Sequence record: PZ386963.1
Length of the DNA stretch: 64,000 bases
DNA from: a phage
Direction: 5' to 3' (one strand)
Shown here: positions 6,329 through 60,644 of the stretch, piece by piece
How the letters are laid out: each line of letters starts with the position of its first letter
Position numbering within the stretch: the stretch's first letter is position 1
The notes under the pieces: model-generated
What the model was told of the DNA's origin: nothing
Databases searched by the model: none
Seen by the model: the letters and a program-made list of their open reading frames with translations, nothing else
Program-made: the position numbers and the translations under genes

Positions 6329-6856
6329 TCAACTTAGTTTTGCAAACTCTCCGTGGAGTTTTATAGCAGCTTCACAGTAAGCTTTATGGGCTTCTTCTGG
6401 TGTGTCATAGTAGCCTAATGACATCTTTTTACCTTTATAGCTTATTTGTGCAACCCACCTACCAGACTTCTTCTTCAGGCTTACACCCTTATAGCCTGAC
6501 TTATTGGTGGATAGTTTGCTTTTATTCCAAGCACTTTGGTAGTCATCTGCTTCTCTTAAGTTTGCAATCCTGTTATCAAGGGAGTCCCCATTAATATGGT
6601 CAATAACACCTTTCGGTAACCTACCATACACATACAGCCATGCGAGTCTGTGCGCTTTATGTGCTTTCTTGTCAAAATAGATAGTAATCTGTTTATGACC
6701 AGTTGAGTCAATCTGGATGCTCCCCGCTACCTGTCCTGCGTACTGAGTATTAAAAACTTTAACAGCCTTTGAGTCGCCCTCTCTACGAAGCCAAGTAAAG
6801 ACCCCTGTTTCGGGGTCATAGTGTAGTAGTTCCTTTAAACGTTCTTGTGTAATCAT
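6329..6856 (-). CDS. HNH homing endonuclease with AP2-type DNA-binding domain
   Basis: DHINGDSLDNRIANLR HNH motif plus YKGVS...RWVAQI...YDTPEEAHKAY AP2-like segment; likely start at internal MITQ. Confidence 0.7.
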   Translation of the reverse strand: MITQERLKELLHYDPETGVFTWLRREGDSKAVKVFNTQYAGQVAGSIQIDSTGHKQITIYFDKKAHKAHRLAWLYVYGRLPKGVIDHINGDSLDNRIANLREADDYQSAWNKSKLSTNKSGYKGVSLKKKSGRWVAQISYKGKKMSLGYYDTPEEAHKAYCEAAIKLHGEFAKLS

Positions 6857-56213: not shown

Positions 56214-56585
56214 ATGAAAAACAGAACAAACAAAGGCCAGTTTAAAAAAGGCCAGTCTGGAAACCCATCTGGAAGACCGAAAGGCTCACGTAACAAAAGT
56301 TCTCTCGTAAAAGCTCAACTGACCATTGATAATTCTGCTGAGTTTGCTGCAAAGTTGTTTGAAGCAATTGTTACAAGGGATGCTGCTAAGCTTGCAGAGT
56401 TCGGGTTAAACACAGACGACGTAACCATCAAGAGCATGATTGAGGTCGGTAAAACTATCATGACTCACTCAGCAGGTGAGATGAAAGCCATTGCAGCAGA
56501 CACTAAGAAGACTCCTGATAACGGTGGTCAGTCTCAGACAGATAACAAACCAACGTTCTCTGCTGTAGCGACTCTCAAAAAATAA
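56214..56585 (+). CDS. Hypothetical protein with N-terminal GQSGNPSGRPKG motif
   Basis: Basic Gly/Pro-rich N-terminal signature recalled as recurring at phage protein N-termini. Confidence 0.4.
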   Translation: MKNRTNKGQFKKGQSGNPSGRPKGSRNKSSLVKAQLTIDNSAEFAAKLFEAIVTRDAAKLAEFGLNTDDVTIKSMIEVGKTIMTHSAGEMKAIAADTKKTPDNGGQSQTDNKPTFSAVATLKK

Positions 56586-56666
56586 TTTTAAAAGGTGTTG
56601 ACAGACTCTACAAAGTTGCTCTAAAGTCTGTCACATCAAACAACAAATGAGAGAAGAGAGTAAAAT

Positions 56667-58082
56667 ATGAGCGAATTATTTAAACATGCGCACCTTCATG
56701 CAGGTCGAACTGAAAATGGTGCTGTAAACCATACTTCATCAATGTCTGCTCTTGTAGACTTTTACAAAGCTGCTGGTTCAAGCCGTAGCAACGTAGAAAT
56801 CTTACCAGACCTGTTCTATAAAGCTTTGCGTGAGGATGTTGATGTTGCAGTTCGTATTTTACTGCATATGCGAGATGTACGAGAAGGTATGGGTGAGCGT
56901 AAAGCCTTCAGAACTGTTTTGCTTCAAGCAATTGAAGATAAAGTTTTAGAGCCTACACAGGTTCTTCGCATTATGGATAAGATTGCAGAACTTGGTCGTT
57001 TTGATGACTTCAAAATCTTCGCAGGTACTCGTTTCGAGACAGATGCCTTCAAACATTTAGAAGCAGCATTACTAGACCCTGCAACAGCAGGTTTGGCAGC
57101 CAAGTGGTTACCACGAGTCAAACCACGTCACAAACAGTTTGTAAAACGTTTCTGCAAGTTTGCCAACTTGAGTGAGAAAGAGTACCGCACACTGTTGTCT
57201 GCACTATCTGATACAGTTGAGCAAAAAATCTCTGCTAATGAGTTTGGTAAGATTGATTACAGTAAGATTCCTTCACTTGCTGCTGCACGTTACCAAAAGC
57301 TGTTTAACCGCAAAGATGGAGAACGCTACAAAGCTTACATCGAGTCTTTATCAAAGGGTGAGACTAAGATTAATGCTGGTGCTGTTTACCCATACGATGT
57401 GATTAAGTCTGTTAAGTATGGTAATGCAGATGTTGCTAATGAGCAATGGAAAGCACTACCAAACTGGATGGCAGAGGGTGAAAACATTCTATGTATGTCT
57501 GATGTTTCATGTTCAATGTCTTGGGTGAATTTTGGCTCCATTACTGCTCTGGATATTGGTGTATCACTTGCATTGTATGTAGCAGAACGCAATACAGGTT
57601 GCTTTAAAAATGAGTTGATGGTTTATTCAACAAACCCTCACTTCATCGAACTGAGTGGTGATTTACGAAATCGCCATCGTCAGGTGATGCGACACGTTGA
57701 ATATGGTTCAACTAACTTACAAGCAGCTTTTGACCGTATTCTTGAGACAGGTAAAAGAAACAACTTGACTCAGAAAGATATGCCAAGTAAGCTTATCATC
57801 TTCTCCGATATGGAGTTCAATCAGGTTGATGGAGCTAACGGTCGTACAAACTTTGAAGCAATTCAGAGTAAGTACAAAAAAGCTGGATATGAGATGCCAC
57901 AACTGGTATTCTGGTACTTAGCAAACCGTAATGGTACTTGCGAAGTATCTGTTAAGGATAACGGTGTAGCAATGGTATCTGGTTTCTCCCCAGCCACTTT
58001 AAAAGCTCTGCTTGGTGGTGAGAAGTTTGACCCAATCAGCGTAATGCTCAAAGCAGTAATGATTGACCGTTATATCTGGTAA
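56667..58082 (+). CDS. vWA-domain protein with N-terminal helical domain (TROVE/Ro60-like or DUF2828-like architecture)
   Basis: MIDAS-like DVSCSMS (DxSxS) with downstream conserved Thr/Asp positions; 471 aa; directly upstream of tRNA cluster. Confidence 0.5.
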   Translation: MSELFKHAHLHAGRTENGAVNHTSSMSALVDFYKAAGSSRSNVEILPDLFYKALREDVDVAVRILLHMRDVREGMGERKAFRTVLLQAIEDKVLEPTQVLRIMDKIAELGRFDDFKIFAGTRFETDAFKHLEAALLDPATAGLAAKWLPRVKPRHKQFVKRFCKFANLSEKEYRTLLSALSDTVEQKISANEFGKIDYSKIPSLAAARYQKLFNRKDGERYKAYIESLSKGETKINAGAVYPYDVIKSVKYGNADVANEQWKALPNWMAEGENILCMSDVSCSMSWVNFGSITALDIGVSLALYVAERNTGCFKNELMVYSTNPHFIELSGDLRNRHRQVMRHVEYGSTNLQAAFDRILETGKRNNLTQKDMPSKLIIFSDMEFNQVDGANGRTNFEAIQSKYKKAGYEMPQLVFWYLANRNGTCEVSVKDNGVAMVSGFSPATLKALLGGEKFDPISVMLKAVMIDRYIW

Positions 58083-58101
58083 AAAAGTTTTAAAAAGGGT
58101 A

Positions 58102-58130
58102 TTGACAATATGTTTGATACCCTTTAATAT
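58102..58130 (+). promoter_or_regulatory. Sigma70-like promoter flanked by an 8-bp perfect inverted repeat
   Basis: TTGACA-17-TAATAT; AAGGGTAT...ATACCCTT straddles the -35 and spacer. Confidence 0.5.
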
Positions 58131-58192
58131 GTTCTACATAGAAACGAAACGAGAGCTTTTCTAAGATACTGAAAAATATTTTAAAAAAGTTC

Positions 58193-58222
58193 TTGACAAC
58201 CACTAAAAAATAATGTTAAAGT
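58193..58222 (+). promoter_or_regulatory. Sigma70-like promoter ~27 nt upstream of first tRNA
   Basis: TTGACA-18-TAAAGT. Confidence 0.45.
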
Positions 58223-58248
58223 GGTTACATAGAGTTTGAAAAGTTTAT

Positions 58249-58325
58249 CTCTGTTTAGCTCAGCTTGGTAGAGCGTTCCGTTTGGGGCGGTAAGGCCGGA
58301 GGTTCAAGTCCTCCAACAGAGACCA
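58249..58325 (+). tRNA. tRNA-Pro (anticodon TGG), CCA encoded
   Basis: Cloverleaf by eye: acceptor CTCTGTT/AACAGAG, D-arm GCTC/GAGC, loop TTTGGGG, T-loop TTCAAGT. Confidence 0.7.
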
Positions 58326-58332
58326 AATTAAT

Positions 58333-58410
58333 GTTCCAGTAGACAAAATGGTAAAGTCACCACTCTTTCAAAGTGGATATCTGAGGGTTCAAATCCCTTC
58401 TGGAACGCCA
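58333..58410 (+). tRNA. tRNA-Glu (anticodon TTC), CCA encoded
   Basis: Acceptor GTTCCAG/CTGGAAC, anticodon stem CCACT/AGTGG, loop CTTTCAA. Confidence 0.65.
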
Positions 58411-58416
58411 GTTTTG

Positions 58417-58492
58417 ACAGAAGACCAATTACAGCAAACTTAATCTTATTCATCTGAAGGTAAATCGGACAAAGAAGAGATTTGGTCTGGTC
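58417..58492 (+). ncRNA. Conserved inter-tRNA hairpin element, copy 1 (candidate small RNA or processing signal)
   Basis: ACAGAAGACCAATTACAGCAA at 5' end pairs with TTGGTCTGG at 3' end. Confidence 0.35.
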
Positions 58493-58502
58493 ATTAAGAA
58501 TT

Positions 58503-58578
58503 GCGGGTATAGAGAAAGGGCGTCTCACATGTCTCATTAGCATGGTATCGGCAGGTTCGACTCCTGCACCCGCCTCCA
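58503..58578 (+). tRNA. tRNA-Met/Ile2 (anticodon CAT) with unpaired position 1-72
   Basis: D-stem GAGA/TCTC, anticodon stem CATGT/GCATG, loop CTCATTA, T-arm GCAGG/CCTGC. Confidence 0.55.
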
Positions 58579-58583
58579 AATTT

Positions 58584-58650
58584 ACAGAAGACCGTTTACA
58601 GCAATATTTATTAAATTTTTAGCGGAAAAATTGAAAGATACGGTCTGGTA
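58584..58650 (+). ncRNA. Conserved inter-tRNA hairpin element, copy 2
   Basis: ACAGAAGACCGTTTACAGCAA ... ACGGTCTGG. Confidence 0.35.
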
Positions 58651-58661
58651 ATACTAAACAT

Positions 58662-58738
58662 GGTTAGGAAGCACATAAGGTATGTGCGGTCGCCTGTTAA
58701 GCGAATGGCACAGGGTTCGAATCCCTGACTAACCGCCA
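58662..58738 (+). tRNA. tRNA-Asn (anticodon GTT)
   Basis: D-stem GCAC/GTGC, loop CTGTTAA, T-arm CAGGG/CCCTG, 3' end ACTAACC-G-CCA. Confidence 0.65.
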
Positions 58739-58807
58739 AATTTAGGAGAGAAGCGATTGCTCACCGATTTGTAAGGTGCAAGTCCTTAGCCTGAATAGAA
58801 ATTAAAT

Positions 58808-58895
58808 GTGTCGTTATCCCGTAGATGGTAGCGGTGGGGACTGTAAATCCCTTGTCATTGAGACTCGGTAGGTTCGACTCCTACACGGCACACCA
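58808..58895 (+). tRNA. tRNA-Tyr (anticodon GTA), long variable arm
   Basis: Acceptor GTGTCGT/ACGGCAC, loop CTGTAAA, 15-nt variable arm, T-loop TTCGACT. Confidence 0.65.
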
Positions 58896-58900
58896 ATAAA

Positions 58901-58978
58901 GGTTATGTAGTTTAATTTGGTTAAAATACTCCCCTGTCACGGGAGATGATGAGGGTTCAAATCCCTTCGTAACCGCCA
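58901..58978 (+). tRNA. tRNA-Asp (anticodon GTC)
   Basis: Acceptor GGTTATG/CGTAACC, anticodon stem CTCCC/GGGAG, loop CTGTCAC. Confidence 0.65.
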
Positions 58979-59038
58979 ATTTTGAGAGGGCTATTTAGCC
59001 CCTCCCTTAAAGAGTTCTTACGAGTATTCTTTAAAGGA

Positions 59039-59113
59039 GCAGAAGACCAAATACAGCAAGTTACTTAAAATTTCAAGCCAATTTAATTTTGAAAAATTTA
59101 AAACTTGGTCTGG
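59039..59113 (+). ncRNA. Conserved inter-tRNA hairpin element, copy 3
   Basis: CAGAAGACCAAATACAGCAA ... TTGGTCTGG. Confidence 0.35.
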
Positions 59114-59125
59114 CTCAACAAATTT

Positions 59126-59258
59126 ACAGAAGACCGTTTACAGCAAAACTTAAACAATCTATTTCTCGGTAAAGAAAAGGTGAAGGTTCGATTCCTTCAC
59201 TCGGCAGATGTCGAGTTGGTGTAATGGTAGCACTTAAGATGATAAACAACGTTCTGGT
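59126..59258 (+). ncRNA. Conserved element copy 4 containing tRNA-like T-arm and D-arm fragments
   Basis: ACAGAAGACCGTTTACAGCAA ... GAAGGTTCGATTCCTTC ... GTTGGTGTAATGGTAGCAC ... AACGTTCTGG. Confidence 0.3.
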
Positions 59259-59402
59259 AATTATCTTTGTAGATAAGTTATTAAGCTTACCTGTGAGTAT
59301 GCGACCACAAAGGGTGAAAGGGTAAATTCTAGATTTAAACCCAAAAAGGCACATCGCTACAGACCTTAAGCAAGTCTGGGTAGCTTATCTACAAAGATAA
59401 TT
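59257..59402 (+). ncRNA. Candidate structured RNA closed by a 17-bp long-range inverted repeat
   Basis: TTATCTTTGTAGATAAG (59261-59277) is the exact reverse complement of CTTATCTACAAAGATAA (59386-59402), enclosing ~108 nt. Confidence 0.35.
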
Positions 59403-59406
59403 TAAT

Positions 59407-59482
59407 GGAAGTGTAGCAGAATGGTGATGCGGCAGACTTTTAATCTGACAGGCGATGGGTTCGAATCCCTCCACTTCTACCA
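59407..59482 (+). tRNA. tRNA-Lys (anticodon TTT), weak T-stem
   Basis: Acceptor GGAAGTG/CACTTCT, loop CTTTTAA, T-loop TTCGAAT; two T-stem mismatches. Confidence 0.55.
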
Positions 59483-59486
59483 AAAT

Positions 59487-59563
59487 GGTTCAGTCGCAGA
59501 TAAGGTAATGCAAGGGTCTCATAAGCCCTATGAATGTGGGTTCGAATCCCATCTGAACCTCCA
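59487..59563 (+). tRNA. tRNA-Met/Ile2 (anticodon CAT)
   Basis: Acceptor GGTTCAG/CTGAACC, anticodon stem AGGGT/GCCCT, loop CTCATAA. Confidence 0.65.
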
Positions 59564-59565
59564 AT

Positions 59566-59640
59566 TGTGGGTTAGCATAAATGGTAATGCAAACGGCTGA
59601 TAACCGTTAGAAGAGGGTTCGATACCCTCACCTACAACCA
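59566..59640 (+). tRNA. tRNA-Ile (anticodon GAT)
   Basis: Acceptor TGTGGGT/ACCTACA, anticodon stem AACGG/CCGTT, loop CTGATAA. Confidence 0.6.
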
Positions 59641-59655
59641 ATTTCAATAAAGTTG

Positions 59656-59684
59656 TTGACATTGAAATGTGACTACTTTATAGT
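59656..59684 (+). promoter_or_regulatory. Sigma70-like promoter inside the tRNA cluster
   Basis: TTGACA-17-TATAGT; flanked by ATTTCAA/TTGAAAT inverted repeat. Confidence 0.5.
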
Positions 59685-59977
59685 AACTAAAATACTTCAT
59701 AATATGTATAATTCAAACACCAATACATGAGCGTTAGACGTAACACAATGTGGGGAAATTTGTTGTACATATTCTGAATAGTTTTCGTTGCGTAGCGTCT
59801 ATTTTGCAAATTTAAAATAAATGCAAACGACAATGTTTTTCTGGCAGTAGCTTGATAGGCTAAACACCAGTGAGGTCTTCCAATCCCTCATCAAAGAATT
59901 TGGCGTACTCGCCCACGGTATGATTAATAAGGTGGGCATCTTTAAGGGCTTTCTAAGAGAGTCTTTAAAGATAATTA

Positions 59978-60059
59978 CGGGGCGTATCTCAGCGGTCTTC
60001 TAAACCGCCGTTAACCGAGTAAGTGGAGTATGCGGGTTCGAGTCCTGCCGCCTCGACCA
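59978..60059 (+). tRNA. Atypical tRNA-like gene (possible Arg, anticodon TCT); D-arm not resolvable
   Basis: Acceptor CGGGGCG/CGCCTCG, stem-loop GCGGT-CTTCTAA-ACCGC, T-arm GCGGG/CCTGC, CCA encoded. Confidence 0.4.
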
Positions 60060-60202: not shown

Positions 60203-60285
60203 ATGGGACGATGTTAAGACTCTAAGGCATGAGCAACGGCCTCCAAAACCGTTTCAAAGGGGTTCAACTCCTCCGTCCCATGCCA
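60203..60285 (+). tRNA. Atypical tRNA-like gene with Trp anticodon arm (CCA); ~7 extra nt between acceptor and D-arm
   Basis: Perfect acceptor ATGGGAC/GTCCCAT, D-arm CTC/GAG, loop CTCCAAA, T-loop TTCAACT. Confidence 0.45.
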
Positions 60286-60543: not shown

Positions 60544-60566
60544 AAAGACCTTTTTAGGTCTTTTTA
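60544..60566 (+). terminator. Rho-independent terminator-like hairpin within tRNA cluster
   Basis: AGACC-TTTTTA-GGTCT followed by TTTTT. Confidence 0.5.
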
Positions 60567-60644
60567 GAGGGCTTCTAAGGTTATTACAGCTTGTTGTGGA
60601 ACCTTGTTGCTTAGGTTCTTAGAAGTTCTCTAAAAAGATTTAAT

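Follow-up and report, generated by a model that had tools for sequence, protein, structure and literature searches.

The first 1.2 kb of the transfer RNA (tRNA) cluster of a Felixounavirus (Felix O1-type phage), sequence record PZ386963.1, contains four paralogous hairpin elements, here named Y1 to Y4, in the spacers between its tRNA genes. We conclude that these elements are probably Y-RNA-like small RNAs, which would be co-transcribed with the tRNAs and act as partners of the divergent Ro60-like protein encoded next to them. The Ro60/Y RNA particle is conserved, poorly understood, engaged in RNA surveillance and a major human autoantigen. A preliminary description of the stretch of 64,000 nucleotides (nt) analysed here (the window) had reported repeated hairpins between the tRNA genes, an observation confirmed by our analysis, and had read them as stable small RNAs or processing modules and as candidate ligands of the adjacent vWA protein. 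The computation favours small RNAs serving as ligands, given the Ro60 fold of that protein, a covarying RNA module and the same-strand linkage of both, and it does not favour a purely processing role. The gene and the elements, the non-tRNA spacers of the region, are arranged as follows.

56667-58082, plus strand: predicted Ro60-fold gene, 471 amino acids, matching Pfam DUF2828 and DUF7788 and PHROG 850 'RNA-binding protein'.
58415-58493, plus strand: Y1, in the tRNA-Glu/tRNA-Met spacer; outer helix UGAC/GUCA, AGA/G loop, inner helix AGACCAA/UUGGUCU (58422-58428 with 58482-58488), then unpaired UUACAGCAA at 58429-58437.
58582-58651, plus strand: Y2, in the tRNA-Met/tRNA-Asn spacer; outer helix UUAC/GUAA, AGA/G loop, inner helix AGACCGU/ACGGUCU, UUACAGCAA at 58596-58604.
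59037-59116, plus strand: Y3; outer helix GAGC/GCUC, AGA/G loop, inner helix AGACCAA/UUGGUCU, motif AUACAGCAA at 59051-59059.
59124-59260, plus strand: Y4; outer helix UUAC/GUAA, inner helix AGACCGU/ACGUUCU, UUACAGCAA at 59138-59146; encloses a putative tRNA-like domain.

Y1 to Y4 fold alike, with an outer helix of 4 base pairs (bp), an asymmetric AGA/G internal loop, a 7-bp inner helix (consensus AGACCNN/NNGGUCU) and the unpaired UUACAGCAA, after which a variable body follows. The box CAGAAGACCNNNTACAGCAA, earlier reported in four spacers together with a downstream pairing partner, occurs four times in the window (58418, 58585, 59040 and 59127), each time on the plus strand and without mismatch, while 100 shuffles gave an expectation of 0.00. 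Its proposed partner GGTCTGG is exact in three copies, but the fourth reads GTTCTGG; the identical string shared by the second and the fourth copy is real and spans 28 nt (58577-58604 and 59119-59146) rather than 26. The paralogues covary in the outer helix (UGAC/GUCA, UUAC/GUAA, GAGC/GCUC) and at the inner end of the inner helix (AA/UU versus GU/AC). Y1 starts 4 nt past the CCA of tRNA-Glu and stops 8 nt short of tRNA-Met, Y2 is placed similarly, and the four elements start 333-1042 nt 3' of the stop codon of the Ro60-fold gene on the same strand. The assignment of Y3 to the group rests on its paralogy with Y1 and Y2. In single-sequence folding, the four short elements reach modest z-scores (-1.1 to -2.1); the support for Y1 to Y4 comes from comparison and not from thermodynamics.

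This comparison was made in a close set of 29 loci (Felixouna-, Susp- and Moogle-like; protein 84-99% identical), which were taken from IMG/VR and GenBank. All 29 loci keep the four elements in the order tRNA-Glu, Y1, tRNA-Met, Y2, tRNA-Asn and, further downstream, tRNA-Asp, Y3, Y4, an inverted repeat and tRNA-Lys; the bodies diverge across the loci and the closing module stays. The preliminary description had named compensatory changes in related phages as a check, and the module indeed proved to be conserved with covariation: the outer helix of Y2 changes from UUAC/GUAA to UUGC/GCAA, and further compensatory changes are found in the acceptor-like stem and the variable-arm hairpin of Y4. The architecture recurs in three elements of Yersinia phage P778 (protein identity 53%), one of which has a T arm; their helices, GGACUGU/ACAGUCC, GGAUUC/GAAUCC and GGACUC/GAGUCC, are different ones.

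The protein is modelled as a Ro60 ring, that is, as helical repeats closed by a vWA domain with a MIDAS (metal ion-dependent adhesion site). An AlphaFold model derived from 39 homologues reached a predicted local distance difference test score (pLDDT) of 90 and a predicted template modelling score (pTM) of 0.89. When this model was compared with the PDB by Foldseek, the ten best matches were all Ro60/TROVE structures (E 2e-8 to 1e-6, template modelling scores 0.46-0.66, >510 aligned columns) from Thermus phage phiLo, Xenopus, human and Deinococcus, with the phiLo Ro60 as the best match (9kop, E = 2.3e-8); beyond the top ten only isolated vWA domains appeared, with E > 2e-3. The MIDAS residues D279, S281, S283, T349 and D381 (DxSxS, T, D) are invariant in the 39 homologues. 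A phmmer search of the PDB with the protein gave no match and an NCBIfam scan nothing meaningful. Full-length homologues were detected by tblastn in 710 phage records, including mycobacteriophage proteins that are annotated as 'Ro-like RNA binding protein' and have ~33% identity; BFVD adds homologues in giant viruses of eukaryotes, and plants have been reported to have DUF2828 proteins.

A Ro60-like protein of a Felixounavirus has been described in a preprint: gp130 of Bas63 is encoded directly upstream of tRNAs and counters the 'ppl' defence system (PMC11482910). As a guess, its authors interpret 'some tRNA genes' following gp130 as potential Y RNAs, the RNAs themselves not being identified there (PMC11482910). 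Judged by this published description alone, gp130 is taken here to be the orthologue of the protein encoded at 56667-58082. In Listeria phage LP-083-2 (7079-11458 of the locus), the Ro60-like gene lies near genes for an RtcB-like ligase, an RNA ligase, an HD phosphohydrolase and a tRNA amidotransferase, and in Aeromonas phage 4_4572 (10071-10994) near an RNA ligase 2 gene; both neighbourhoods recall the bacterial rsr-yrlBA-rtcBA RNA-repair operon.

In phages from ten distant lineages, a core module of the form AG-helix / NNA-CAGCAA / variable / helix-CU / G is found next to homologous genes in one to eight tandem copies (eight in the Aeromonas phage, five in Bacillus, four in Enterococcus, three each in Listeria, Staphylococcus and Mycobacterium, two in Campylobacter and one in Cronobacter). 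Two looser variants, in which the gap measures 2 nt, were seen in a Synechococcus phage, and each of two uncultured contigs has three copies. A scan with strict criteria (helix of 7 bp, gap of 3 nt, CAGCAA, G behind the 3' strand) was applied to 15 distant loci totalling 155 kb and returned 35 matches on the gene strand and none on the opposite strand, with 0.57 expected from shuffles; 29 of the 35, distributed over 10 of the 15 loci, are no more than 1.5 kb away from the gene. The G following the 3' strand was not a criterion of the scan by which instances were collected, yet it is invariant in 34 of 34 non-Felix instances, and all seven helix positions show double changes across the 34 phage instances. 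Relaxed structural scans (six of seven pairs) were too noisy and were not used. In Cronobacter phage S13 (6895-7288 of the locus), two over-long 'tRNAs' of 121 and 113 nt and then a 135-nt module-bearing tRNA-like element follow the Ro60-like gene.

The tandem copies are informative on the possibility that the elements are only cis-acting processing or spacer hairpins which guide RNase E, RNase III or RNase P on the tRNA precursor. Such a role is suggested by their position between tRNA genes in one apparent transcription unit, by the unremarkable single-sequence folding energies of Y1 to Y3 and by the resemblance of the ~24-bp inverted-repeat helix 5' of tRNA-Lys to an RNase III substrate. 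However, hairpins of this kind need neither an invariant unpaired CAGCAA nor a 3' G, and the module occurs in tandem without flanking tRNAs in Staphylococcus phage 6ec and in mycobacteriophage Rumpelstiltskin, whose locus has no tRNAs. The module follows the DUF2828 gene and not tRNAs, being absent from the T4 tRNA cluster, and Y4 retains a complete tRNA-like core with compensatory changes. We therefore regard a role confined to processing, as contained in the term 'processing modules' of the preliminary description, as quite unlikely, since it fails to explain the invariant unpaired motif and its presence where no tRNAs flank it.

The same description had compared the elements with the stable RNAs of T4, and as an analogy this holds: T4 species 1 and 2 (rnaC and rnaD) are small RNAs of unknown function which are co-transcribed and co-processed with tRNAs, as would be the case here, and rnaC has a T-arm-like end. 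Homology with rnaC and rnaD was ruled out, as these lack the closing helix with the CAGCAA module and the T4 tRNA region gave no match to the covariance model R1. T4 itself was not checked for the protein, and no T4-like phage was among the Escherichia-phage tblastn matches listed for it.

Model R1 was built from module instances without any Felix-type sequence, the centres of the bodies having been removed so that MAFFT keeps the helices in register; a plain MAFFT alignment of full-length elements, in which several 3' strands were out of register, was not used. The top match of R1 in the whole window is Y2 (27.8 bits, E = 9e-4). Orthologues held out from the model were found with E = 1.4e-4 to 0.012 and up to 31.8 bits, among them the Susp-like Y1 orthologue (23.6 bits, E = 0.012).

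Y4 differs from Y1 to Y3 by its body, which is predicted to be a circularly permuted tRNA-like domain of the YrlA type and is composed of the following parts.

~59162-59177: variable-arm-like hairpin, from RNAalifold.
59182-59198: T arm GAAGGTTCGATTCCTTC, loop UUCGAUU.
59199-59216: closed 7-bp acceptor-like stem-loop, then UG.
59218-59234: D arm, with the D-arm-like GGTGTAATGGTAGCAC at 59218-59233.

T-arm-like and D-arm-like pieces in a non-canonical order had been noted before, and both are present; what had been called fragments are parts of a complete permuted tRNA-like domain. An RNAalifold run on 15 Y4 orthologues recovered the two closing helices, the variable-arm-like hairpin, the T arm, the acceptor-like stem and the D arm, and three pairs of the acceptor-like stem carry compensatory double changes (ACUCGGC/GUCGAGU, ACACG/CGUGU and ACCCUUC/GAAGGGU). 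The combination of T arm, acceptor-like stem and D arm is also found in long members of the family in Enterococcus, Bacillus, Mycobacterium and Cronobacter phages, and the 17-nt D arm of the Enterococcus phage, UGGUGUAAUGGUAGCAC, is identical to that of Y4. A functional tRNA gene, permuted or split, was ruled out, since an anticodon arm is missing and the acceptor stem forms a closed loop.

The Y4 region also bears on the question of whether the elements lack an RNA function and are either repeats at the DNA level (for instance promoters or sites of recombination or of homing endonucleases) or tRNA pseudogenes in decay. In one SP116-like relative (IMGVR_UViG_2706796742_000001, 6447-6595 of the locus), a deletion fuses the T loop of Y4 to that of tRNA-Lys (GAAGGTTCGATTCCCTCCACTTCTACCA) and takes out the remainder of Y4, the inverted-repeat element and most of tRNA-Lys, which looks like recombination via T-loop homology. 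This T-loop-to-T-loop deletion, the homing endonuclease genes and indels in relatives mark the region as recombinogenic; in addition, the 5' box of Y2 overlaps a weak promoter-like TTTACA-16-AATATT (58581-58608), and genuine tRNA remnants lie nearby (58739-58807). In contrast, compensatory changes that preserve pairing and the strand asymmetry of 35 versus 0 indicate selection on RNA, and the stems of the tRNA-like domain of Y4 (T, D and acceptor-like) persist in phages of different phyla, so that we consider a purely DNA-level origin very improbable.

With a long RNA and several short ones encoded next to a Ro60-shaped protein and in its orientation, the arrangement resembles the bacterial YrlA/YrlB systems, in which, as here, the 5' and 3' ends pair into a module that putatively binds the protein and has a conserved motif on the 5' strand or behind it. 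YrlA of S. Typhimurium is a circularly permuted tRNA with a closed acceptor stem, and that of M. smegmatis has a 7-bp acceptor-like stem and is cleaved by RNase P (PMC4201824; bioRxiv 10.1101/312249). Y4 has the YrlA order of T arm, closed acceptor-like stem-loop, dinucleotide and D arm, while Y1 to Y3, which lack the tRNA-like body, resemble YrlB. Unlike in the YrlA/Ro60 pairs, the protein belongs to Pfam DUF2828/DUF7788 and not to TROVE, being a Ro60 by fold only, the RNAs lie inside a tRNA operon in four to six copies, and Y4 has an extra variable-arm-like hairpin. Phage Ro60-type proteins with adjacent Y-RNA-like genes are a further likeness, found in phiLo, mycobacteriophages, CcrColossus and Bacillus phage G. 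Thermus phage phiLo encodes a Ro60 with adjacent Yrl1 and Yrl2 (PMC12135203); this protein, however, is a canonical TROVE member, and its Yrl RNAs carry CGAA in an internal bulge and are located upstream of the gene and not among tRNAs. At gathering thresholds, Rfam reported tRNAs only, and Rfam 15 at E <= 10 gave no Y-RNA family, a result which is uninformative since the intended positive control, a mycobacteriophage Ro-like locus, gave none either.

Phage tRNA clusters are known counter-measures against tRNA-cleaving defences, and Y4 is a close tRNA mimic. Both points would fit free-standing small RNAs or tRNA decoys that act independently of the Ro60-like protein, the gene linkage reflecting a shared pathway; such decoys might, for example, titrate a host tRNA-targeting defence nuclease or a tRNA-modifying enzyme. 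The direct binding of DdR-21, a Class I RNA of Dictyostelium discussed below, to an RNA recognition motif (RRM) protein and not to a Ro-like one points in the same direction. Nevertheless, the tRNA-like body is found in only one of the four elements, whereas all lineages have the closing module in common, which corresponds to the Ro60-binding part of Y RNAs. Moreover, a linkage on the same strand, here within 1.5 kb and across hosts of four phyla, is the known pattern of Ro60/Y RNA pairs (PMC4201824). A decoy role of Y4 that does not depend on the protein is possible, but for the elements as a group we consider this explanation unlikely and prefer the reading as Y-RNA-like partners of the protein.

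Several results weigh against this preferred reading. In the window, R1 is significant for Y2 only, and for Y1 only in Susp-like phages; Y1 of the window scores poorly, Y3 reaches 10.9 bits and Y4 is not found, the poor scores and the loss of Y4 arising because the model penalises long bodies. The inner helix of Y4 in the window reads ACGUUCU instead of ACGGUCU, which places a C-U mismatch in a conserved helix; the underlying G to U change at 59252, from which the deviating GTTCTGG results, is private to the window, the other related loci all reading ACGGTCTGG. The 100% pairing in the alignment of module instances (A2) arises by construction, as instances were selected for pairing; the comparisons with orthologues and with P778 are independent of this selection. 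Vibrio phage phi-pp2 and Erwinia phage pEa_SNUABM_19 have the gene and no strict module within 5 kb, with weak R1 matches of ~16 bits in phi-pp2; in these phages, either the motif differs or the RNAs sit elsewhere. Concerning the protein, Pfam TROVE was not matched even at E <= 10, only DUF2828 and DUF7788 being found, and a profile search of PDB sequences reached Ro60 only at E of about 0.5-2. Finally, the YrlA motif GNCGAAN0-1G was not seen on inspection of Y1 to Y4, which have (U)UACAGCAA and a 3' G instead.

The inverted repeat that the preliminary description had placed before tRNA-Lys is real and longer than the 17 bp given there. Two elements of this type were recognised.

59259-59402, plus strand: inverted-repeat element of 144 nt, a ~24-bp helix around a multi-hairpin interior, ending 4 nt 5' of tRNA-Lys.
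60554-60643, plus strand: possible sixth, weaker relative, with 26-nt inverted-repeat arms (85% complementary), just 5' of tRNA-Leu.

The perfect arm of the first element comprises 19 nt (59259-59277), and the 22-nt arms (59259-59280 with 59381-59402) are 95% complementary; the 148-nt inverted-repeat stretch folds with -48.3 kcal/mol (z = -6.3). Its interior contains a miniature of the module, CUAC-AGAC-C-UUAAGCAA-GUCU-GG-GUAG (59357-59383). Compensatory changes affect 7 of 32 RNAalifold pairs; the long helix accounts for five of these, the inner hairpin for one (G-C to A-U) and a further short interior hairpin for one, and P778 has an equivalent hairpin, AAGUC-CCUUAGCAA-GACUU, 5' of tRNA-Lys. 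The sequence comparison identifies 59259-59402 as a fifth conserved structured RNA. The element before tRNA-Leu encloses AAGGUU-AUUACAGCUUG...-AACCUU-G (60577-60606) in the same layout as the element before tRNA-Lys and was scored by R1 with 13.6 bits (E = 2). A terminator-like hairpin, AAAGACC/GGUCUUU, is located 5' of this repeat.

With regard to a mechanism, we suggest that the RNAs are made within the tRNA precursor from the promoter-like sites at 58102 and 58193 and that the host enzymes which trim the flanking tRNAs would also release them. Each RNA would close on itself via the 6-7-bp helix with its AG start and CU end, followed by (U)UACAGCAA and, after the 3' strand, the G. This closing module may be the docking site for the Ro60-like ring, as the gene linkage across phages implies, while the variable bodies might provide specificity and tether other factors. 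Y4 would present a tRNA elbow and could serve as a tRNA decoy or attract enzymes that recognise tRNAs. It is also a plausible RNase P substrate, with a 7-bp acceptor-like stem on a 5-bp T stem and U before G at 59210, because this corresponds to the minimal substrate geometry, as in M. smegmatis YrlA. The inverted-repeat element may be a fifth Y-type RNA. In view of the RtcB and RNA-ligase neighbours in other phages and of the Bas63 phenotype, it is conceivable that the ribonucleoproteins (RNPs) serve RNA quality control or surveillance, RNA repair or counter-defence during infection.

The sole recurrent non-tRNA-type match of the elements in Rfam at E <= 10 was RF01414, the Dictyostelium Class I RNA, with 20.1 bits for Y2 and 19.7 bits for Y1. 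In a second search, for which this family had been named beforehand, four copies of the Aeromonas phage scored 29.8, 29.6, 28.0 and 25.7 bits, and these matches were full-length and lay exactly on the elements that the structural scan had found independently. The E-values of 0.14-1.6 are multiplied over 4227 families and are equivalent to ~3e-5 to 4e-4 for a single family. As a counterpoint, none of the scores (19.7-29.8 bits) reaches the gathering score of 41.5.

Class I RNAs are ~60 nt long and occur as many paralogues with a variable body and a 6-bp terminal helix that is conserved in structure and not in sequence (PMC7919456). The 5' strand is followed by an unpaired 11-nt CCUUACAGCAA, and the ends read AAG... 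and ...CUGU (PMC7919456). The likeness to the phage elements therefore comprises the terminal helix (inner helix of 7 bp in Y1 to Y4, 6 bp in Class I) and the unpaired motif directly after its 5' strand, UUACAGCAA in the phage versus CCUUACAGCAA in Class I. The near-invariant Class I positions U3, C6, C9, A10 and A11 are all present in Y1, Y2 and Y4, and Y3 (AUACAGCAA) has A for U3; positions 1-2 (CC), in contrast, are not matched in Y1 to Y4. DdR-21 is given in the supplement of Kjellin et al. 2021 as GTTGACCTTACAGCAA...GTCAACTG (PMC7919456), so that GUUGAC-C-UUACAGCAA...GUCAAC-UG can be set against AGACCGU-UUACAGCAA...ACGGUCU-G of Y2. The Felix-type ends, AG...CUGG, lie within a longer RNA with an outer helix, and the copies of Aeromonas, Listeria and Cronobacter phages read exactly (A)AG...CUGU, as judged by sequence.

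There are also clear differences, since the Felix-type elements add an outer helix and the AGA/G loop, and since Class I RNAs are eukaryotic, have Dictyostelium upstream sequence element (DUSE) promoters ~60 nt upstream (probably RNA polymerase III) and are reported to be unique to Dictyostelia, whereas the phage elements have sigma-70-type promoter matches and a polycistronic context. A pull-down with DdR-21 yielded an RRM protein as direct binder, GuaB, NdkC and the uncharacterised DDB_G0281243; the sole proven direct binder of a Class I RNA is thus this RRM protein and not a Ro-like one. In the literature searched, no paper links Class I RNAs to Ro60 or Y RNAs, and no functional information was found on DDB_G0281243, DUF2828 or PF11443. 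Candidates from outside the Dictyostelia, such as Arabidopsis ath_can_1 (TGTTTTCATTACAGCAATC...GAAAACTG, Infernal 40) and one from Capsaspora, were dismissed in the supplement of Kjellin et al. 2021 (PMC7919456), although they show the full signature.

The likeness between the phage and the Class I RNAs could be due either to homology or to convergence. We tentatively put forward, as a possibility somewhat short of probable, that both belong to one ancient family whose module (AG-helix, UUACAGCAA, CUG) is recognised by Ro60-like proteins of the DUF2828 type. If so, Class I RNAs, which have been without a known mechanism for 20 years, would amount to Y RNAs belonging to a second, so far unrecognised branch of Ro with members in phages, giant viruses and eukaryotes, a function would be assigned to DUF2828, DDB_G0281243 would be the obvious candidate for the Dictyostelium partner, and the Arabidopsis and Capsaspora candidates could be genuine.

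Should the reading of Y1 to Y4 as partners of the Ro60-like protein be correct, a compact Ro-like RNP system with at least four RNAs would be present in common and genetically tractable phages that infect E. coli and Salmonella, offering a direct route to the function of the particle during infection; gp130 of Bas63, taken as the orthologue, is already linked to 'ppl' escape. It would define a large family of phage small RNAs with a simple signature in phages of Proteobacteria, Firmicutes, Actinobacteria and Cyanobacteria, a testable ligand for DUF2828/DUF7788 proteins, which are also present in giant viruses and plants, and a concrete, inexpensive way of testing if social amoebae have Y-RNA analogues in their Class I RNAs. 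This RNA family is broad and apparently undescribed in the literature searched, and some of its elements in cluster-L mycobacteriophages may already count as YrlA (PMC4201824). The annotation of the spacers, which in GenBank records are unannotated or labelled 'hypothetical protein', is affected as well.

The surrounding region (58080-59660) is 99.4% identical to Escherichia phage adrianh and matches 340 phage records, mostly of Felixounavirus and relatives. ARAGORN and Rfam place ~25 tRNA genes from 58249 onward, all on the plus strand. The further features of the region are listed here.

56214-56585: open reading frame (ORF) with DUF5681, 123 amino acids, directly 5' of the Ro60-like gene.
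56598-56627, plus strand: sigma-70-like promoter match TTGACA-18-TAAAGT, 5' of the Ro60-like gene, 10/12 in the consensus scan.
58102-58130 and 58193-58222, plus strand: two sigma-70-like promoter matches directly 5' of tRNA-Pro, 10/12 each.

The two matches before tRNA-Pro are the likely start of the tRNA/Y-RNA transcription unit; the consensus scan returned no more sites than in shuffles and is weak evidence taken alone. From these promoters (58102-58222) to 59640, no terminator-like site was found on the plus strand. The DUF5681 ORF is also located immediately 5' of the Ro60-like gene in Escherichia phage adrianh and Salmonella phage BPS15Q2 and may belong to the same module.

Between tRNA-Asn and tRNA-Tyr, a spacer of 69 nt (58739-58807, z = -2.6) contains a remnant resembling a tRNA 3' half, GGTGCAAGTCC; as this spacer has only 8-10 nt in many relatives, it appears to be an insertion or a decaying tRNA. 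A tmRNA identity of the elements was rejected, since the weak matches at 59583-59855 and 59978-60059 fall outside them; the former, a 'permuted tmRNA' match (23.4 bits, E = 0.036), overlaps tRNA-Ile. Two tRNA-like sequences at 59978-60056 (Rfam tRNA, 31.7 bits) and 60205-60279 (tRNA-Sec-like, 23 bits) were not called by ARAGORN, and in the corresponding interval relatives have tRNA-Arg(tct) or tRNA-Trp(cca).

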